Assembly (NCBI GenBank): GCA_018814765.1
Contig: JAHIZJ010000099.1
Location: 1 to 46,077 of the forward strand
Reading direction: 5' to 3'
Length of the DNA: 46,077 nucleotides
From: Patescibacteria group bacterium
GTDB lineage: Bacteria > Patescibacteriota > Patescibacteriia > JAHIZJ01
Shown here piece after piece: positions 2,243 to 46,077 of this stretch (positions within the stretch are counted from its first letter, which is position 1; each line of letters opens with the position of its first letter). A model generated the notes under the pieces. That model did not search any database. It had not been told where the DNA came from and saw only the letters and a list, made by a program, of their open reading frames with translations. Both the position numbers and the translations under genes were made by a program.

Positions 2243-3294
2243 CTACATTCAATGTTTTAGTGCAACACAGTGATTAAATACTTGTTGTGGTGTTTTGTAG
2301 TCCAATCGTTTCCTTGGCCTATTATTCAATCGTCTTTCAATAGTTTGTATCTCTTCGTTAGATATGGTAGCAAAGTCAGTACCTTTGGGGAAGTAGTATC
2401 TGATTAACCCATTGGTGTTTTCGTTACACCCCCGTTCCCAGGAATGATAAGGATGAGCAAAGTAAATAGGCATATTCAGTTGTTTAGTTATTTCTTTATG
2501 TTTAGCGTTCTCACTACCGTTATCAAGAGTCATAGTCTTCCGTAGATAACTAGGCACTCGTTGCAAGCGTTTCGTGATAACACGTTGTGTTTCACGACTC
2601 GTTCTGTTCACTATTTTACTGATCTTTACTAATCCACTGACTCGTTCGACAATTGTATTTAATCCCACCTTGCTTTTCTTGGAAACAACAGAGTCTCCCT
2701 CCCAGTGCCCAGATTCAACCCGAAGATCAACCACCACTGGTCTCTGATCAATCAAAACCCTGTCTTTTATTGCCCCCTTTTCGACTTTGAAATGTACTTC
2801 CTTTCTTTTTCTAACTTTATGTTTTCTCTTAAGATAGATTCTTAAGTTTTCACCAACCAAAACTCCATAACCTCCTCTAGTATATTGAGAATAGATATAC
2901 TGATAGATGGCTTCATGACTAACTGTTGTTCCCAGTATCTTTTGAGGTAGTGTTCCAGCGATTTGCTCAGGGGACCAATGGTTTGTTTGGAGTCCTTCCT
3001 TCACATAATCCCTGATACTCTGTTCCTTTAATCGAGGACGTTGGCCACGTTGTTTAATGGTTGTCTTAGCTCTCTCATGGGCCAGACGAGGGGCGCTGCG
3101 CCGGATAGTTACGCGTAAGCTCTCGACTAATGGTAGAAGCAGCTCTGCCAAGCTCAGTGGCTATCATGCGTATACTTTTACCCTCCCACAAGCCTAATTG
3201 TATTGCTTCTCTCTCCATAATGGATAATTGTTGATATTTTCTCATATACCCTTCATTCTACATGGTGTTGCACTTACTTGTGGGTAGAATGTAG
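2243..3294 (-). mobile_element. IS30-family insertion sequence (about 1.05 kb)
   Basis: Imperfect inverted ends: 2243 CTACATTC...AGTGCAACAC 2268 matches the reverse complement of 3261-3294 (CTACATTC...AGTGCAACAC). They enclose a single IS30-type DDE transposase gene. The element sits between the pilin-2 terminator and the pilin-3 promoter. No clear target-site duplication was found. Confidence 0.7.
2249..3245 (-). pseudogene. IS30-family DDE transposase, split by a +1 frame change
   Basis: The 300-aa body has IS30 hallmarks (HWEGD, NENTNGLIRYYFPKG, NNRPRKRLDYKTP). The HTH N-terminus MRKYQQLSIMEREAIQLGLWEGKSIRMIATELGRAASTISRELTRN starts at ATG 3245 in another frame and stops at TGA 3075-3077. 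The body frame only has a TTG at 3151. Confidence 0.65.
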
Positions 3295-3304
3295 GATACT
3301 GACA

Positions 3305-3333
3305 TTGCTTTTCTCCTTTATATATGCTATAAT
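3305..3333 (+). promoter_or_regulatory. Sigma70-like promoter of pilin paralog 3 (duplicate of 1516-1544)
   Basis: TTGCTT (3305-3310), 17-nt spacer, TATAAT (3328-3333). Confidence 0.5.
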
Positions 3334-3431
3334 GATAATAAGTAAAGTGTAATAAGTTTAATTAGATCTTTTCTTCTTAGAGCTGTCACTAGTGTAGCTT
3401 TAAAAGAAATCCTTGAAAGGGGGTGAAATAA

Positions 3432-4022
3432 ATGAAAAACAAAAAAGGTTTTACATTGATTGAATTATTGGTTGTTATCGCTATTATCGGTCTGCTCTCA
3501 ACATTGGCTATCGTTTCATTGAACACAGCCCGTGAGAAATCACGAGACTCAAAGAGAGCTTCGGATATGAGAGTTATTCAATCAGGCGTAGAACTGTATA
3601 TTAATGAGACAGGTATGGCACCATCCGCTGATGATTTAGTTGTAGCAGGTAAAACATGGGCTGAATTAGAGGATATGATAGGTACGTATGTGGTTGGAGG
3701 AGATCTACCATTACCTCCAACGGATAATTGTAATGAAGTAGGCGGGTCTGCTGATTCTGATACTGACTGCTACGTCTATTGTGTTGATGATACTGGTGCT
3801 ACCTCTACAGGTAATTACCTCTTGAAAGCCACGATGGAAGCAGACGCAGAAATAACAGGAGATCTGGATTTTGCTAATGATACTTCATATGACACTATCG
3901 GTGAATGTATCTATGTAGATGATGGAGGAAACAGCGTTACCACAACTGTAGTACCAGTGATTAATTGTAATGAAACTGAAGGTGGTACTGGAAATGACCA
4001 TTTCTGCTTAGGCTCTGCCTAG
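3432..4022 (+). CDS. Type IV pilin-like protein (paralog 3)
   Basis: Same prepilin signal and N-terminal helix as paralog 2. The C-terminal domain is divergent but keeps DCYVYC, GEC and HFCLGSA. Confidence 0.9.
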   Translation: MKNKKGFTLIELLVVIAIIGLLSTLAIVSLNTAREKSRDSKRASDMRVIQSGVELYINETGMAPSADDLVVAGKTWAELEDMIGTYVVGGDLPLPPTDNCNEVGGSADSDTDCYVYCVDDTGATSTGNYLLKATMEADAEITGDLDFANDTSYDTIGECIYVDDGGNSVTTTVVPVINCNETEGGTGNDHFCLGSA

Positions 4023-4039
4023 GTATATAGATACAGAGA

Positions 4040-4070
4040 GAGGGCGCGAATTACGTCCTCTTTTTGTTTT
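4040..4070 (+). terminator. Intrinsic terminator after pilin paralog 3
   Basis: Stem GAGGGCG (4040-4046) pairs with CGTCCTC (4054-4060) with one G-U pair, followed by TTTTTGTTTT. Confidence 0.6.
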
Positions 4071-4114
4071 CCCAGCCCTGTGACACAGAGAGTGTTTTGT
4101 AGTATAATTAAACC

Positions 4115-4654
4115 ATGAAAAAACATGTTGGTGGATTTACTTTAATTGAACTATTGGTTGTTATTGCTATTATAGGCCTGCTCTCAACAATGGCCATAGT
4201 GTCACTGGAGTCAGCTCGAGCCAAAACGCATGATAGCAAAAGACTGTCGGACCTAAAAACGCTTATGACAGCGGTTTAGCTGTATATCAATGACAATGGC
4301 CAACCCCCGCCAAACAATGCTGTTGACCCTCCTTGGGCCAATTTACTAAATAGGATTGGTGATTATATCGTTGGAGCACAGTTACCCGTTCCGCCCGGTA
4401 ACTCACCCTGTATATCTACCGGTAATGATCCGACTGGAGATTGTTATACCTACTGTGAAAATGGAACGATCTATCTCCTAGCCGCTGAACTAGAGGAGGA
4501 TACTGCAGTTATCAATGGAGACATAGATGGTGATATTGCAGGTATCTATACAGCACCTGGTCAATGCATTACACAACTTGATGCATTAGGTACAGTCCCA
4601 TATGTTGTTTCGTGCAATGACCCTACATTTTGTCTGGGCCCAAAGCAGGAATAA
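4115..4654 (+). pseudogene. Type IV pilin paralog 4 with an in-frame TAG at codon 55
   Basis: Hand translation gives MKKHVGG|FTLIELLVVIAIIGLLSTMAIVSLESARAKTHDSKRLSDLKTLMTAV*LYINDNGQ...GDCYTYCENG...GQCITQ...VSCNDPTFCLGPKQE. The TAG at 4277-4279 replaces the Glu seen in the paralogs (AIELEV, GVELYI, AVEMYN). The gene is missing from the ORF track because of the split. Confidence 0.75.
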
Positions 4655-41146: not shown

Positions 41147-41413
41147 TTATTTTGCAATCGATAAATCCTCTCTAAGGATATATTTCAAAGTTGTTTTACC
41201 TTTATTAGTTTTAAAATATCGCTCACGACGAAGTGTATCAAACTTTGATCGATGGGCTTCAAAATAAATTAATTCAAATGGACGCCTTTTGGATGTCGAG
41301 ATGTTTTCACCACGATTATGTTGAGAAACGCGTCTTTCTATGTTTCTCGTATAACCAATGTAAAATTTGCCATCTTTTATACTTCTTAGAATATAAACAA
41401 AATGCCAGGTCAT
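41147..41413 (-). CDS. GIY-YIG nuclease-domain protein (small, stand-alone)
   Basis: WHFVYILRSIKDGKFYIGYTRNIERRVSQHN...YFE...REKYF-like RERYFK. Confidence 0.85.
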   Translation of the reverse strand: MTWHFVYILRSIKDGKFYIGYTRNIERRVSQHNRGENISTSKRRPFELIYFEAHRSKFDTLRRERYFKTNKGKTTLKYILREDLSIAK

Positions 41414-41447
41414 AATTTTCTGTACTCCCTGCCACTTTGATTACTTA

Positions 41448-41545
41448 GTAGTGAACCACTCGCTTTGCTTGGGTTCACTACATGAACCACTCACTTTATT
41501 TGATATGGCTGCACCATGAACTCGAACGAAGTGAGTAGTTCATGG
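41448..41545. repeat. Cluster of long palindromic hairpins sharing a TGAACCACTC core
   Basis: GTAGTGAACC (41448-41457) pairs with GGTTCACTAC (41472-41481). CATGAACCACTCACTT (41481-41496) pairs with AAGTGAGTAGTTCATG (41529-41544). CCATGAACT (41514-41522) pairs with AGTTCATGG (41537-41545). Confidence 0.6.
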
Positions 41546-41619
41546 TGGGAGCAGGAGGATTCGAACCTCCGACCGTCTGCTTAAAAGGCAGCTGCTCTAC
41601 CTAACTGAGCTATACTCCC
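41543..41619 (-). tRNA. tRNA-Lys (anticodon UUU), CCA encoded
   Basis: Hand-folded on the minus strand: GGGAGTA|TA|GCTC-AGTTAGGTA-GAGC|A|GCTGC-CTTTTAA-GCAGA|CGGTC|GGAGG-TTCGAAT-CCTCC|TGCTCCC|A|CCA. Confidence 0.9.
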
Positions 41620-41679
41620 ATGTTGTTACGTTGTGTACTTATTTAGTAAAGAGGGTTAAGTAAACCTTTTTAACTGAGC

Positions 41680-41759
41680 CCCGACGAGATCGCTCCGCGA
41701 TCTGTCGGGATCCCGATTGGTCTCGAGCGAAGTCGAGAGGCCACTTCGGGGCATCGGGA
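41680..41759. repeat. GC-rich double hairpin (REP-like)
   Basis: Hairpin 1: 41680-41692 pairs with 41698-41709 (12 bp, one bulge). Hairpin 2: TCCCGAT (41711-41717) pairs with ATCGGGA (41753-41759) and encloses CTCGA-GCGAAG-TCGAG. It shares the 12-mer GAGCGAAGTCGA with 42834-42845. Confidence 0.5.
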
Positions 41760-41816
41760 CTATACTCCTGACATAACTTTAACAATATTAACAGGCTTTT
41801 ATGGTTTTAGCAAGGC

Positions 41817-41845
41817 TTGACATATTTCAATAAACATGATATTCT
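41817..41845 (+). promoter_or_regulatory. Sigma70-like promoter upstream of the DGR target gene
   Basis: TTGACA (41817-41822), 17-nt spacer ending in TGA (extended -10-like), TATTCT (41840-41845). Confidence 0.4.
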
Positions 41846-41883
41846 ACCATGTCTGTACTTTACATGGATATATTTACTTGCAT

Positions 41884-41966
41884 TGTGGCCATAGCTAAAA
41901 GTAACTGGAAACCACCCTGAGCATTAGCGAAGGGCCTTTCGGTAATTTCTAGCTATGGCTACCACA
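41884..41966 (+). promoter_or_regulatory. Long stem-loop in the 5' leader of the DGR target gene
   Basis: TGTGGCCATAGCT (41884-41896) pairs with AGCTATGGCTACCACA (41951-41966): 13 bp with a 3-nt bulge. The 54-nt interior contains a CGAAG-GGCC-TTTCG hairpin. It ends 50 nt before the ATG. Confidence 0.45.
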
Positions 41967-42015
41967 GACGGTGATAGCCCGATAGCGATACTCCAAACTA
42001 GAGGAGGATGACGCC

Positions 42016-42678
42016 ATGTCGAAAGATGTGTCCCCATCCGAAGTAACCATCACGAAAGGCCAGTGTTGCAAGCTCATGGATGTGGGCGCGGACGCGCTGG
42101 TCAAGAGCGGCCTGCCCAGCAAGGAGACCCAGGACGTGATCGAAGAGGAGGGCGCGGAAATTGCCAAAGTCCTGGTCGCGGATGTCCGCCGCAGAGTTGA
42201 GGCACGCCTGCGTGCCATCGAACCCCACGTTCTGGAACGTCTGCCTTTCGACCCCGAATCCTTCTCGGGCAAGGGGTGGGAGGTTGACGAGCGTGTCGGC
42301 AACCGCACCGGAGGAAACCTCGACGCGGGACAGATTGTCCGCATGGACTACCTGCGTGAGGGCGAGACCTACATCACCGGAGATGAACGTCTCCATCGTA
42401 TCAAGGAAGCACCCGGAGACATCCAGCTCGACGCCGAGGACTTCCTTGCCTTGTGGCAGGAGCAGGGCCACGCCACCCTCCGGTGGCTGTACGACACTAA
42501 GGGTATCACCTGGCTGTCGTTTTGGGGTACGGTTCTCCGCGACTCAGGCAGCCGCGGCGTCCTCTGCCTCTCTCGCGATGACGGCGGTTCCTGGGACTGG
42601 GACTACCGCTGGCTCGGCAATGACTGGGTCTACTACTACCCGGCGGGTGTCCTCGCAAGTAACCCCCGCACCGAATAG
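42016..42678 (+). CDS. DGR target (variable) protein, 220 aa, no signal peptide, GC-rich
   Basis: GAGGAGGA RBS 7 nt upstream of the ATG. The C-terminus GVLCLSRDDGGSWDWDYRWLGNDWVYYYPAGVLASNPRTE carries the variable repeat. Chosen over the overlapping GC-artefact ORFs. Confidence 0.75.
   Translation: MSKDVSPSEVTITKGQCCKLMDVGADALVKSGLPSKETQDVIEEEGAEIAKVLVADVRRRVEARLRAIEPHVLERLPFDPESFSGKGWEVDERVGNRTGGNLDAGQIVRMDYLREGETYITGDERLHRIKEAPGDIQLDAEDFLALWQEQGHATLRWLYDTKGITWLSFWGTVLRDSGSRGVLCLSRDDGGSWDWDYRWLGNDWVYYYPAGVLASNPRTE
42592..42658 (+). repeat. DGR variable repeat (VR)
   Basis: 67 nt, in frame (codons 193-215). 58 of 67 positions are identical to 43176-43242, and all 9 differences lie opposite adenines of the other copy. 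Confidence 0.8.
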
Positions 42679-42686
42679 GTGCGGGG
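42664..42686 (+). promoter_or_regulatory. GC-rich hairpin immediately 3' of the VR (candidate DGR target-recognition hairpin)
   Basis: CCCCGCACC (42664-42672) pairs with GGTGCGGGG (42678-42686), loop GAATA. It spans the TAG stop codon. No T-run follows. It is absent next to the TR. Confidence 0.5.
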
Positions 42687-42866
42687 CAGGTAGTTCTTGG
42701 AACTTGACCTCCTAGACCTCTTTGGTCTTTGGATTCAGTTCTTAGAGCTTTGTCCGCTCGGCCCGCGCTGGTTTCTACACTGGCGCGGGTCATTTCTTTT
42801 TGACGCGAAGCGTCATGTCGAGCGACCTGTGGTGAGCGAAGTCGAACCAAGTCGAGACATCTCATT

Positions 42867-42895
42867 TTGCTTTTGGTGTTTGTTTTGGATATACT
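42867..42895 (+). promoter_or_regulatory. Sigma70-like promoter upstream of the template repeat
   Basis: TTGCTT (42867-42872), 17-nt spacer, TATACT (42890-42895). Confidence 0.4.
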
Positions 42896-43175
42896 AACTT
42901 TGGTACTAGGTTAATCAGTCAGCGACTATTGTTGCTGACGACCGAATCCAGTGACCATATTACTCAGAGTACCGCAGGCCACGGTTTGCGGCAGCGTGGA
43001 ATACGGCGCTCAAAAAACGATGTTACTTGGTATAGCGCGTTAAGGCATTTAATATGCCGGATACGATACAGCCCCAAGAGTACTCAAAGGGCAGTGGCAT
43101 GGACGGCACGCTGTACAGAACCGCAACGCTGATGGCAATATCAACGTCCGTTACCTCAACTGGGATGATGACAGG

Positions 43176-43242
43176 TGGAACTGGAACTACAACTGGCTCG
43201 ACAATGACTGGAACTACAACAACCCGGCGGGTGTCCTCGCAA
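43176..43242 (+). repeat. DGR template repeat (TR) core; the TR-like Asn-codon-rich stretch may extend 5' to about 43074
   Basis: Noncoding: in-frame stops at 43041 and 43050, and no ATG in that frame. It is AAC/AAT-rich (reads WNWNYNWLDNDWNYNNPAGVLA). All 47 non-A positions are identical to the VR. Confidence 0.8.
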
Positions 43243-43254
43243 ATTACCTCGTTT

Positions 43255-43283
43255 CTCTCCCTTGTTTGGGAGAGTTTTGTTTT
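43255..43283 (+). terminator. Terminator-like hairpin directly after the TR
   Basis: CTCTCCC (43255-43261) pairs with GGGAGAG (43268-43274), followed by TTTTGTTTT. Confidence 0.45.
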
Positions 43284-43301
43284 GTAAGTTGGCCGTTCTA
43301 G

Positions 43302-43550
43302 CCTCCTACTAATAAGGTATCTATTAAAACCGTGGCTTCGGGAGTGGATTTTCTGGGCTGGGTGCATTTTCCTAACCATCGGGTATTGAGGACTGTTGCA
43401 AAACGTAGGATGTTAAAGAATCTTGATATCAAACAAGGTGAGAACGCAACAGCACAGTCGTATATTGGTCTGTTACAGCACGGGAATACTAAGAAGCTAT
43501 CCCAACGAGTATCTGATGTGTCAGGAAATAGCGAGCAGTACAAAAATTGA
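43302..43550 (+). pseudogene. DGR-type reverse transcriptase, C-terminal fragment only (about 82 codons)
   Basis: PPTNKVSIKTVASGVDFLGWVHFPNHRVLRTVAKRRMLKNL...SYIGLLQHGNTKKL parallels the end of the Bordetella phage Brt (..SRGINFLGYRIWPTHKLLRKSSVKRAKRKV...SWSGHAQWADTHNL, recalled from memory). There is an in-frame TAG at 43299, no ATG, and no palm domain or YxDD motif anywhere upstream. Confidence 0.6.
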
Positions 43551-43585
43551 AAAAAAACTCATATATTGGTATAGTAATAAACAGT

Positions 43586-46077
43586 ATGTCTATACAAAAA
43601 AGCTACAATCTGACACAAATAAAAGTTTTTGAGTTATTAAAAACTCGTAAGTTCGGCTTGACTGGTAAGGAAGTCACTGCGCGTCAAAAGAAGTATGGCC
43701 AGAATTCTTTACCAGAGGGCCATCGCGCCTCCCGACTAATATTGTTATTAAACCAGTTCAAAAGCTCACTCGTCTATATACTATTAGGAGCGGCTGGGAT
43801 AAGTCTACTTTTAGAATCTTTTGTGGACATGTATGTTATTTTGTCTGCTGTTATTGTTAATGTAATAGTAGGATATGTCCAAGAGAGCCGAGCCATGAAA
43901 GCGATGGAGAAATTGAGAAGAATAGTCCAATTTCAAGCACTTGTGGTGCGCAATGGAGAAGAAAAAAACATTAATGTAAAAGACCTGGTTCCGGGTGATA
44001 TAGTTGTATTGGAGCCTGGCTATAAAATACCGGCTGATATTCGGTTTTTTGATACGGTCAATCTTAGGATTAACGAAGCACGATTGACCGGTGAATCACA
44101 CCCCGTTACAAAAACCACAAAACCATTAACCGGAGACTTGGTTTTAGCCGACAGAACAAATATGGGATTTATGGGTACTGTAGTAGTGGGTGGATCTGGC
44201 AGGGGTGTGGTTTGTCAGACAGGCACAGAAACAGAGCTGGGTCAGATAGCTCAGATGATTAAAGACACTAAAGAAGAGAAGACGCCCTTGCAAGAAAGGC
44301 TAAGCTCCCTCAGTAAACTTCTCGGGGGTATGATTTTATTGATCTGTTTATTCATTTTTGCTTTCGGATATTTTGCTGGTCATGGATTTCTAGAAATGTT
44401 TACTACTTCCGTAGCCATCGCAGTGGCGGCTATTCCAGAGGGCTTAGCTGTGGCTGTGACGGTAATTCTTGCGATTGGTATGCAGAGGATACTCAAACAC
44501 AAGGCCTTGGTGCGAAAACTAGTAGCGGCTGAAACTCTTGGTTCGACAACGGTTATCTGTACAGATAAAACCGGCACTCTAACAGAAGGTGAAATGAAAG
44601 TAGTAAGAGTTATCACCAATAATCAAGACTTTGAAACGCACGAAGACAAATTCAGAACCCATTTAAAAGAAACTGGTGCAAGCTTTATTAAAGCTCTTGA
44701 GATCGGCGTCTTATGCAATGATGCACACATTGAAAATGAGTATAGTGATATAAAAGACTGGGTGATCTTTGGTAATCCGACTGAGAAAGCTCTTATATTG
44801 GCGGGCAGTCAGGTTGGCTTGAACCGTAGTAATTTAGAGAAAGTTACCCCGCGCATTGATACTGTTCCCTTTACCTCTGAACGAAAGTTCATGATGACAC
44901 TACACCATGATAAAAAAGACAATAAGGTTATTTATCTGAAAGGTGCTCCTGAAAAAGTACTTGAAATGTCAGACTCGATAGATGTTGATGGAAAAATTGA
45001 AAAGCTTACCCCAGCAAAATTAGAAAAACTGAAAAAGCGCTATGAGTTGCTTAGCAATAAGGGCTTAAGAATTATTGCCTTAGCTTATCGATCTAGAGCA
45101 ATAGATTTTACCAAGATGATAGAGAGCCCCGGTTTATATGAACAATTTGTTTTTGTTGGATTTATGGGCATCAAAGACCCCCTAAGAAAAGAGACCAAAG
45201 AAACAATTGACCTATGTAAAAAGTCTGGTATAAAAATTGTGATGATAACGGGTGATCATAAATTAACAGCCCAAGCTATTGCAAATGAATTAGGCTTACC
45301 GGCTAAAGCAGAAAACGTACTCGAAGGGGCTGAAATGTCAAAAATGAATAACACGCAACTACAAGAACGCGTTAAGAAAATATCTGTCTATGCCCGAGTA
45401 ACCCCAAAGGATAAATTGCGCATAGTTGATGCTTGGCAGGCCATAGGAGAGGTGGTGGCTATGACCGGTGATGGGGTTAATGACGCCCCAGCTTTACGTG
45501 CCGCCGATATCGGTGTAGCAGTTGGATCTGGTACCGATATAGCCAAAGAAACAGCCAGCTTAATAATACTGGATGACAATTTTAAAACCATTGTTGAGGC
45601 TGTGCGTCAAGGGAGAGTAGTCTTTGACAATATCCGTAAGGTGGTGTTGTATTTACTTTCTGATAGCTTTTCTGAAGTAATAATGATTTCAGTATCTTTA
45701 CTTTTAGGTTTCCCACTTCCTTTGTTGGCTGCACAAATTCTTTGGATAAATTTGGTGACAGATGGATTTCCAGATATTGCCCTTACTCTTGAGCCACCCG
45801 AAAAAGCAGTTATGGAAGAGCCACCTATTCGTCGTGATGAACCTATTGTTAATAACGAAATGAAAATATTGATAGGTGTAATAAGCTTGGTCACTGGCTT
45901 GGTCACTCTGGGATTGTTCTATTTTTTTTACAAAGCTACTGACGATCTTGATTTAGCTCGAACCATCGCTTTCGTTTCAGTTGGTATCGACTCTCTGCTT
46001 TATGTCTTTAGCTGTAGATCGCTTCGTACATCTATCTTTAAAAAGAATCCATTCTCCAATATTTATTTAATTATTGC
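43586..46077 (+). CDS. P-type cation-transporting ATPase (type II-like), 3' end outside window
   Basis: Hand translation from ATG 43586 gives MSIQKSYNLTQIKVFELLKT...TGESHPV...ICTDKTGTLT (Asp codon at 44564, in frame)...VAMTGDGVNDAPALRAADIGVAVG. The frame is open to the window end, so the gene is absent from the ORF track. Confidence 0.9.
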   Translation, partial: MSIQKSYNLTQIKVFELLKTRKFGLTGKEVTARQKKYGQNSLPEGHRASRLILLLNQFKSSLVYILLGAAGISLLLESFVDMYVILSAVIVNVIVGYVQESRAMKAMEKLRRIVQFQALVVRNGEEKNINVKDLVPGDIVVLEPGYKIPADIRFFDTVNLRINEARLTGESHPVTKTTKPLTGDLVLADRTNMGFMGTVVVGGSGRGVVCQTGTETELGQIAQMIKDTKEEKTPLQERLSSLSKLLGGMILLICLFIFAFGYFAGHGFLEMFTTSVAIAVAAIPEGLAVAVTVILAIGMQRILKHKALVRKLVAAETLGSTTVICTDKTGTLTEGEMKVVRVITNNQDFETHEDKFRTHLKETGASFIKALEIGVLCNDAHIENEYSDIKDWVIFGNPTEKALILAGSQVGLNRSNLEKVTPRIDTVPFTSERKFMMTLHHDKKDNKVIYLKGAPEKVLEMSDSIDVDGKIEKLTPAKLEKLKKRYELLSNKGLRIIALAYRSRAIDFTKMIESPGLYEQFVFVGFMGIKDPLRKETKETIDLCKKSGIKIVMITGDHKLTAQAIANELGLPAKAENVLEGAEMSKMNNTQLQERVKKISVYARVTPKDKLRIVDAWQAIGEVVAMTGDGVNDAPALRAADIGVAVGSGTDIAKETASLIILDDNFKTIVEAVRQGRVVFDNIRKVVLYLLSDSFSEVIMISVSLLLGFPLPLLAAQILWINLVTDGFPDIALTLEPPEKAVMEEPPIRRDEPIVNNEMKILIGVISLVTGLVTLGLFYFFYKATDDLDLARTIAFVSVGIDSLLYVFSCRSLRTSIFKKNPFSNIYLII

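Follow-up and report, generated by a model that had tools for sequence, protein, structure and literature searches.

How does a DGR with a VR and an apparently complete TR come to stand beside nothing more than the C-terminal end of a reverse transcriptase (RT)? It may have lost its enzymes, its TR may be served by enzymes encoded elsewhere, or the gap may be a product of the assembly. The question is raised by a contig of 46,077 bp, complete as analysed here and called the window below. Comparison with more than 140 related cassettes indicates that the locus is very probably an ordinary decayed copy of a known and abundant Patescibacteria DGR family, in which a deletion of about 1.1 kb cost both the RT and the accessory gene avd. 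The features on which the argument rests are the following (locus L001 is an intact relative used as reference).

41147-41413, minus strand: GIY-YIG ORF in the 3' region of the contig
41543-41619, minus strand: tRNA-Lys, likewise in the 3' region of the contig
41817-41845, plus strand: promoter-like site (TTGACA-17-TATTCT, TG before the -10; 10/12 in the scan), predicted to serve the target gene
41885-41962, plus strand: 5' leader hairpin of the target gene, an inverted repeat (GCCATAGC...GCTATGGC); the same motif lies upstream of many relatives' targets
42016-42678, plus strand: target of the DGR, a gene of 220 aa and 60-64% GC whose 3' end contains the VR (ORF and composition)
42547-42664, plus strand: VR, core 42592-42659, 5' part drifted
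42760-42801, plus strand: intrinsic terminator of the target gene (13-bp stem and T-run) from the scan; relatives have an equivalent hairpin and T-run
42802-42875, plus strand: short-repeat insertion of about 75 nt (GAGCGAAGTCGA...GTCGAGACATCTC), from alignment A2, repeats and motif search
42867-42895, plus strand: putative TR-RNA promoter; -10 TATACT (42890-42895) conserved in the family, -35 TTGCTT (42867-42872) weak and specific to the window
42902-43133, plus strand: structured 5' domain of the TR RNA (RNAalifold covariation)
43134-43248, plus strand: TR, core 43176-43243, 81% identical over 171 nt to the TR region of L001
43253-43284, plus strand: hairpin and U-run, likely the 3' end of the TR RNA (scan, folding, conservation)
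43244-43306, minus strand: avd remnant, last 20 codons (translation GG, stop, NGQLTKQNSPKQGRETR, stop); a conserved Trp codon has become TAG
43307-43310: deletion junction; homology to the antisense of avd stops at 43306 and RT homology begins at 43311
43311-43550, plus strand: C-terminal RT stub (motifs 6-7 and thumb), corresponding to L001 RT residues 259-329, without a usable start codon
43586 to the end of the contig: P-type ATPase gene, which follows the RT stub and is cut off by the contig end

The RT stub, the avd remnant and the junction

Behind the TAG at 43299-43301 a frame of 82 codons is open from 43302 to 43547 and closed by the TGA at 43548-43550. A preliminary description of this DNA had read it as the C-terminal piece of a DGR RT, preceded by an in-frame stop, lacking a start and without the catalytic YxDD palm, and each part of that reading holds. 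The stub comprises the last ~70-79 residues of a DGR RT. A phmmer search against 5.8 billion proteins gave 126 matches (best E=3e-27), many of them with PF00078, and the stub retains all 18 columns that are invariant in the family alignment. The intact 329-aa RT of L001, used as tblastn query against the 46-kb contig, matched solely at 43311-43520 (residues 259-328, E=1e-21). YxDD (L001 residues 223-226) and everything 5' of it are therefore missing from the window, a full-length catalytic RT is not present, and this search found no other RT sequence on the contig. An HMM comparison with RT thumbs had also been proposed in that description. Pfam and NCBIfam gave no match for the stub, which does not refute the assignment because a family-specific HMM, built from 81 intact C-termini, matches it strongly (126.5 bits; family mean 122.7, sd 6.1; rank 60 of 81). 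In sequence the RT C-terminus of the window is 56-74% identical to those of the family, and among the phmmer matches listed from the 5.8 billion proteins none exceeds 74% identity to the stub. The clade belongs to Patescibacteria: most matches with a named source, like most related loci, bear the label of Patescibacteria or CPR lineages.

The 120 matches listed of these 126 are 67-142 aa long and many start with MNEFDQ, so that a conserved split RT or a stand-alone thumb protein was considered. This reading was rejected because the RT ORF of L001 is intact (329 aa) and the related loci are nearly all full length. In L001 a spurious antisense ORF (3290-3943, minus strand) overlies the RT (3392-4381, plus strand); the gene caller chose this ORF over the 5' half of the RT, which is GC-rich, and began the RT anew at an internal Met. 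Two of the MNEFDQ-type calls (~125 aa) located on long contigs were checked; one was an intact RT (L001) and the other a real truncation. Public gene calls of about 125 aa that start with MNEFDQ can hence be miscalled intact RTs, and protein-level surveys of the RT clade would undercount intact RTs or miscall them as fragments. At its other end, the stub overlaps in its stop codon with a promoter-like site (43547-43575, TTGAAA-17-TATAGT, with TG), which lies just 5' of the P-type ATPase gene.

The order of the family is target gene with VR (plus strand), terminator, TR-RNA gene (plus), avd (minus) and RT (plus). In every related locus with enough upstream DNA avd is found on the minus strand directly 5' of the RT and divergent from it; Pfam bAvd annotates this gene in L004 and L007, and RVT_1 also annotates relatives. 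Between TR and RT of the window a complete reverse-strand avd is missing, and only the 20-codon remnant with its internal TAG is left. In 28 relatives the sequence aligned with it is the antisense of the Avd C-terminus (..GKMLGGWNGQL..), and the same is true of the relatives' counterpart of the motif GTAAGTTGGCCGTTCTAGCCTCC, which follows the hairpin and U-run. No other Avd similarity was found in the window. The CTAG at the stop of the remnant also supplies the plus-strand TAG in front of the RT stub that had been noticed before. Position and orientation of the remnant fit an ancestry in the B3 architecture.

In the junction alignment (A2), the window from the end of the VR onward was set against 28 relatives. 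Homology is continuous through the target terminator, the -10 box, the conserved ~290 nt behind it, the TR, the hairpin and the Avd antisense as far as 43306, and then jumps to RT codon 259 at 43311. In comparison with L001 about 1.1 kb is gone (L001 ~3062 to ~4166), which takes in the first ~108 codons of avd, the first 258 of the RT and the divergent promoter region. Avd and the RT palm are both missing because the same single deletion spans the 5' ends of the two genes. The preliminary description had suggested a recently decayed DGR with a deletion from the spacer into the RT, whose junction was to be found by alignment with intact cassettes. The related cassettes support decay by a deletion that reaches into the RT, and the alignment puts the junction at 43307-43310; the left end has to be moved from the spacer into the antisense avd between TR and RT. 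The remark that no Avd ORF lies between VR and TR is correct, the avd of the family being located between TR and RT on the minus strand. The gene calls of this record also contain a 118-aa ORF on the minus strand (43023-43379), which runs opposite the TR, the avd remnant and the first part of the RT stub; it is almost certainly no gene.

Taken as a sequence of events, one deletion of ~1.1 kb across the divergently transcribed avd and RT would have led to the loss of both proteins. What survives is the target gene together with the VR, the whole TR-RNA gene (~385 nt), the last 20 codons of avd and the last ~79 codons of the RT. The retained TR-RNA gene consists of the -10 box, a structured 5' domain of ~290 nt which takes in the first part of the TR, the TR itself, and the hairpin with its U-run. 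In intact relatives, by analogy with the Bordetella phage paradigm, RT and Avd would copy the TR RNA into adenine-mutagenised cDNA by which the VR is replaced. Since neither RT nor Avd can be made in the window, the cassette is most likely inert and its VR frozen.

The same picture could arise from a collapse during assembly, or from a MAG that captured a minority deleted allele of a population in which the cassette is intact; this is judged very improbable. It is true that the junction is held by one assembly only; a look-up of the antisense ORF across the junction returned the source contig alone, contigs of other runs that carry the same DnaB or target gene break ~450 nt upstream of the junction, and an exact 34-nt pattern from the hairpin region was not found in JGI metagenomes. 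However, the junction lies outside any repeat that might mislead an assembler, the sole long repeat in L001, L004 and L007 being VR/TR. Furthermore, the avd remnant bears an inactivating TAG of its own, comparable deletions exist in independent relatives, and no intact allele of the lineage is on record, given the 74% limit among the phmmer matches listed.

The TR-RNA transcription unit

Counted from -10 box to U-run, its length is 395 nt in the window and 377-449 nt in 28 relatives. A TAnnnT box stands at its start in the 29 sequences, with the two T invariant and the A near-invariant, and TATACT of the window aligns with it. A promoter TTGCTT-17-TATACT had been proposed at this place. Its -10 box is borne out by conservation in the family; its -35 box is not, as TTGCTT agrees with the -35 consensus at 3/6 positions, is not conserved and lies at the edge of the window-specific ~75-nt insertion, and the promoter scan did not call the TR site (8/12). 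An extended -10 (TGn) is present in 19 of the 28 relatives, the window having GGA there.

The region 5' of the TR is structured. RNAalifold gave 50 pairs for the unit, 38 of them with compensatory changes; the helices of the 5' domain are located at 42920-42937, at 42959-43002, and at 43030-43041 with 43105-43116, the last enclosing 43045-43057 and 43071-43092. Paired cells make up 94.5% (40-51% with slid partners), and the covariation score is 0.65, compared with 0.13-0.19 for slid partners and with 500 shuffles of which none reaches 0.65. In the window 47 of the 50 consensus pairs are kept, which is the median of the intact loci. The alignments (A2, A3) place the structured RNA at 42902-43283 in the window, at 2641-3039 in L001 and in 26 other loci. 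No Rfam match exists for the structured TR RNA; on 41400-43700 the tRNA was the sole Rfam match.

The stem and U-run behind the TR, which had also been pointed out earlier, are well supported. The hairpin at 43253-43274 plus TTTTGTTTTG was called terminator-like by the scan and has a folding energy of -14.3 kcal/mol (z=-4.2). Its position is conserved in the family, and the stem sequences differ with compensatory changes in the relatives; the 3' end of avd, which converges on it, overlaps with it in intact relatives. The idea of an orphaned TR with its own promoter and terminator thus stands as regards the -10 box and the terminator, and falls as regards the orphan, because the arrangement is family-wide. 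A discrete TR RNA with its own predicted promoter and terminator is the norm of the family and not a result of orphaning. As a by-product this is more interesting than the cassette itself: throughout the family a separate RNA of ~390 nt appears to carry the TR, and its large 5' domain, backed by covariation, has no Rfam entry.

Target gene, VR and the age of the deletion

The C-terminus of the target is homologous to the VR-bearing targets of related cassettes; Pfam and NCBIfam gave no match for the target. The hairpin in the leader may be a leader RNA element. A rough alignment shows counterparts in L001 (~1840-1905) and in several of L004, L040, L049, L053, L072, L084 and L085. In base composition, the region 41900-43300 differs from its flanks, with 60-64% GC in the target gene, ~49-50% in the TR region and ~30-47% in the flanks; in L001-like relatives the target and the 5' half of the RT likewise look GC-rich. 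A GC-rich cassette could reflect horizontal origin or adenine-poor coding constraints.

In the VR/TR core of 68 nt (42592-42659 and 43176-43243) there are 10 mismatches, and all 10 are located at adenines of the TR. The VR ends 14 nt before the stop codon; a 20-nt stretch (CCCGGCGGGTGTCCTCGCAA) is identical in the VR and TR copies, after which the sequences diverge, an IMH/IMH*-like layout. Extension of the pair to 42547-42664 and 43134-43248 brings in 10 mismatches away from TR adenines together with a 3-nt indel, every one of them in the 5' part; the whole pair then has 19 adenine mismatches, 10 non-adenine mismatches and the indel. Intact cassettes, of which 54 were compared, have a median of 1 non-adenine mismatch and a 90th percentile of 3. 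Those of the window are confined to the 5' 47 nt, which under a uniform spread would have a probability of ~1e-4, and are therefore probably older than the loss of the RT and cannot be used to time it. We infer that the 5' part diverged while the 3' 68 nt were still refreshed by homing, so that the pattern records a shrinking VR and no clock for the RT loss.

With 47 of 50 RNA pairs kept and a stub that scores like an intact RT C-terminus, TR RNA and RT stub are without measurable decay, and the deletion therefore appears to be recent. The same preservation would also fit continued selection. The latter would apply if the orphan TR-RNA gene were functional and a second DGR in the genome supplied RT and Avd in trans, the VR still being diversified. 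This explanation is regarded as improbable, and an equally low probability is given to its corollary, a TR-RNA gene kept by selection as a stand-alone non-coding RNA gene for use in trans by the RT-Avd of another DGR. If true, several template/target modules would depend on one enzyme set, and a module could do without enzymes encoded in cis. Several observations are in agreement with it. The TR RNA is predicted to be an independent and structurally intact transcription unit (47/50 pairs), and the 3' 68 nt of VR and TR differ at adenines only. Moreover, genomes with two cassettes of the family exist (MFLL01 with L054 and L070), and in the Bordetella phage DGR avd, TR and brt can be expressed in trans from a plasmid (PMC5758913). 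The indirect evidence, however, goes against a supply in trans, which is not favoured: the 46-kb contig holds no RT or Avd elsewhere, in its 5' half the VR has diverged from the TR, with an indel, the family-typical extended -10 TGn is lost in the window, and with an undecayed stub recency alone accounts for the intact RNA.

The behaviour of the VR in other samples points in the same direction. In assemblies of three other sequencing runs, possibly from the same sample, the target gene including the VR is 100% identical at the nucleotide level. A consensus VR that is identical in all three counts against diversification in trans and hints at an absence of turnover, with the reservation that a consensus hides minor variants. 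The junction is present in one assembly, the contigs of the other runs stopping at ~42850, inside the short repeat. This repeat (GAGCGAAGTCGAGA core with the flanks GTCGAGCG and GTCGAGACATCTC) is located between the target terminator and the TR -10 box, is absent from this position in 28 relatives, and has a related copy at ~41660-41760, adjoining the tRNA-Lys and the GIY-YIG ORF. That the contigs of three other runs all break inside it suggests that it is multicopy in the genome.

Decay among relatives and comparison with known systems

The decayed, enzyme-less cassette that is preferred here belongs to a minority among its relatives. Full-length RTs were found in 80 of 80 loci from GTDB genomes (the best 80 of more than 600 matches, none of them from the assembly of the window) and in 64 of 67 evaluable metagenome loci, a sample picked by C-terminal similarity alone. 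The other decayed cassettes resemble the window in that the RT is inactivated by a deletion or a stop while TR and VR often persist. In L169 avd residues 84-114 are joined to RT residues 113-321, and VR and TR are clean with adenine-only differences; it represents the same class of deletion across the divergent 5' ends of avd and RT. In L004 and L005 avd, TR and VR are kept and the RT is reduced to residues 247-322. L008 and L009 have neither TR nor avd; a gap of 55 nt separates their VR-type target ORF from an RT stub with residues 247-321 (L008 3332-4291), a layout that may be due to a larger deletion or to VR x TR recombination followed by deletion. RT residues 197-325 remain in L002 and L003, with YAGD replacing YADD, and an internal deletion has removed RT residues 27-218 in L006. 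The otherwise full-length RTs of L007, L104 and L130 are interrupted by a single in-frame stop, which in L007 is a TGA (3998-4000) shortly after YADD. The stubs of L002, L004 and L008 and the interrupted RT of L007 are found at the bottom of the intact HMM distribution, in contrast to L006 and the stub of the window.

That template switching, for instance, had led to breaks again and again at the RT motif LHPxK was considered and rejected. The breakpoints differ (RT residues 27/218, 113, 197, 247 and 259), and the deletions are therefore independent accidents and no programmed event.

By itself the cassette is of small importance, since DGRs of this type are common in Patescibacteria and this copy is pseudogenised. 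It illustrates a route by which a DGR dies: a deletion across the divergent avd/RT promoter region kills both enzymes, and the RNA gene and the target stay. For annotators it is a warning that TR/VR pairs without RT, as well as RT stubs, exist, with ~3 of 67 related metagenome loci broken; a literature search found no specific description of RT-less or truncated DGRs. In addition, the locus is a natural "enzyme-null" allele whose presumably frozen VR could calibrate estimates of DGR activity.

Of the CPR DGRs, 90% have the architecture B3, TR-(avd)-RT (Wu et al. 2018, PMC5758913), and DGR clade 2 is restricted to Patescibacteria (Roux et al. 2021, PMC8144416). The family of the window is of B3 architecture and its RT clade corresponds to clade 2. 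Like other CPR B3 DGRs the window has a target with a C-terminal VR and a TR ~450-580 nt downstream, and it keeps the same TR-RNA unit (-10 box, 5' domain, TR) with the hairpin behind the TR. Unlike them, its avd is reduced to 20 codons with a stop and its RT lacks residues 1-258 including YxDD; in addition, the 5' half of its VR contains non-adenine mismatches and an indel, and the ~75-nt repeat precedes the TR promoter.

The DGR of Bordetella phage BPP-1 (PDB 8ub7) shares with the family the TR RNA, Avd, the RT and the adenine-specific differences between VR and TR. Its bRT is also the best PDB match of the stub (8ub7_A, residues 251-301), with marginal similarity (E=0.027). According to a preprint (bioRxiv 10.1101/2023.10.23.563531), avd is located upstream on the same strand in BPP-1, and the RNA needs segments flanking the TR on both sides. 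Unlike BPP-1, the window has a large conserved structured domain 5' of the TR and merely a short hairpin with a U-run after it.
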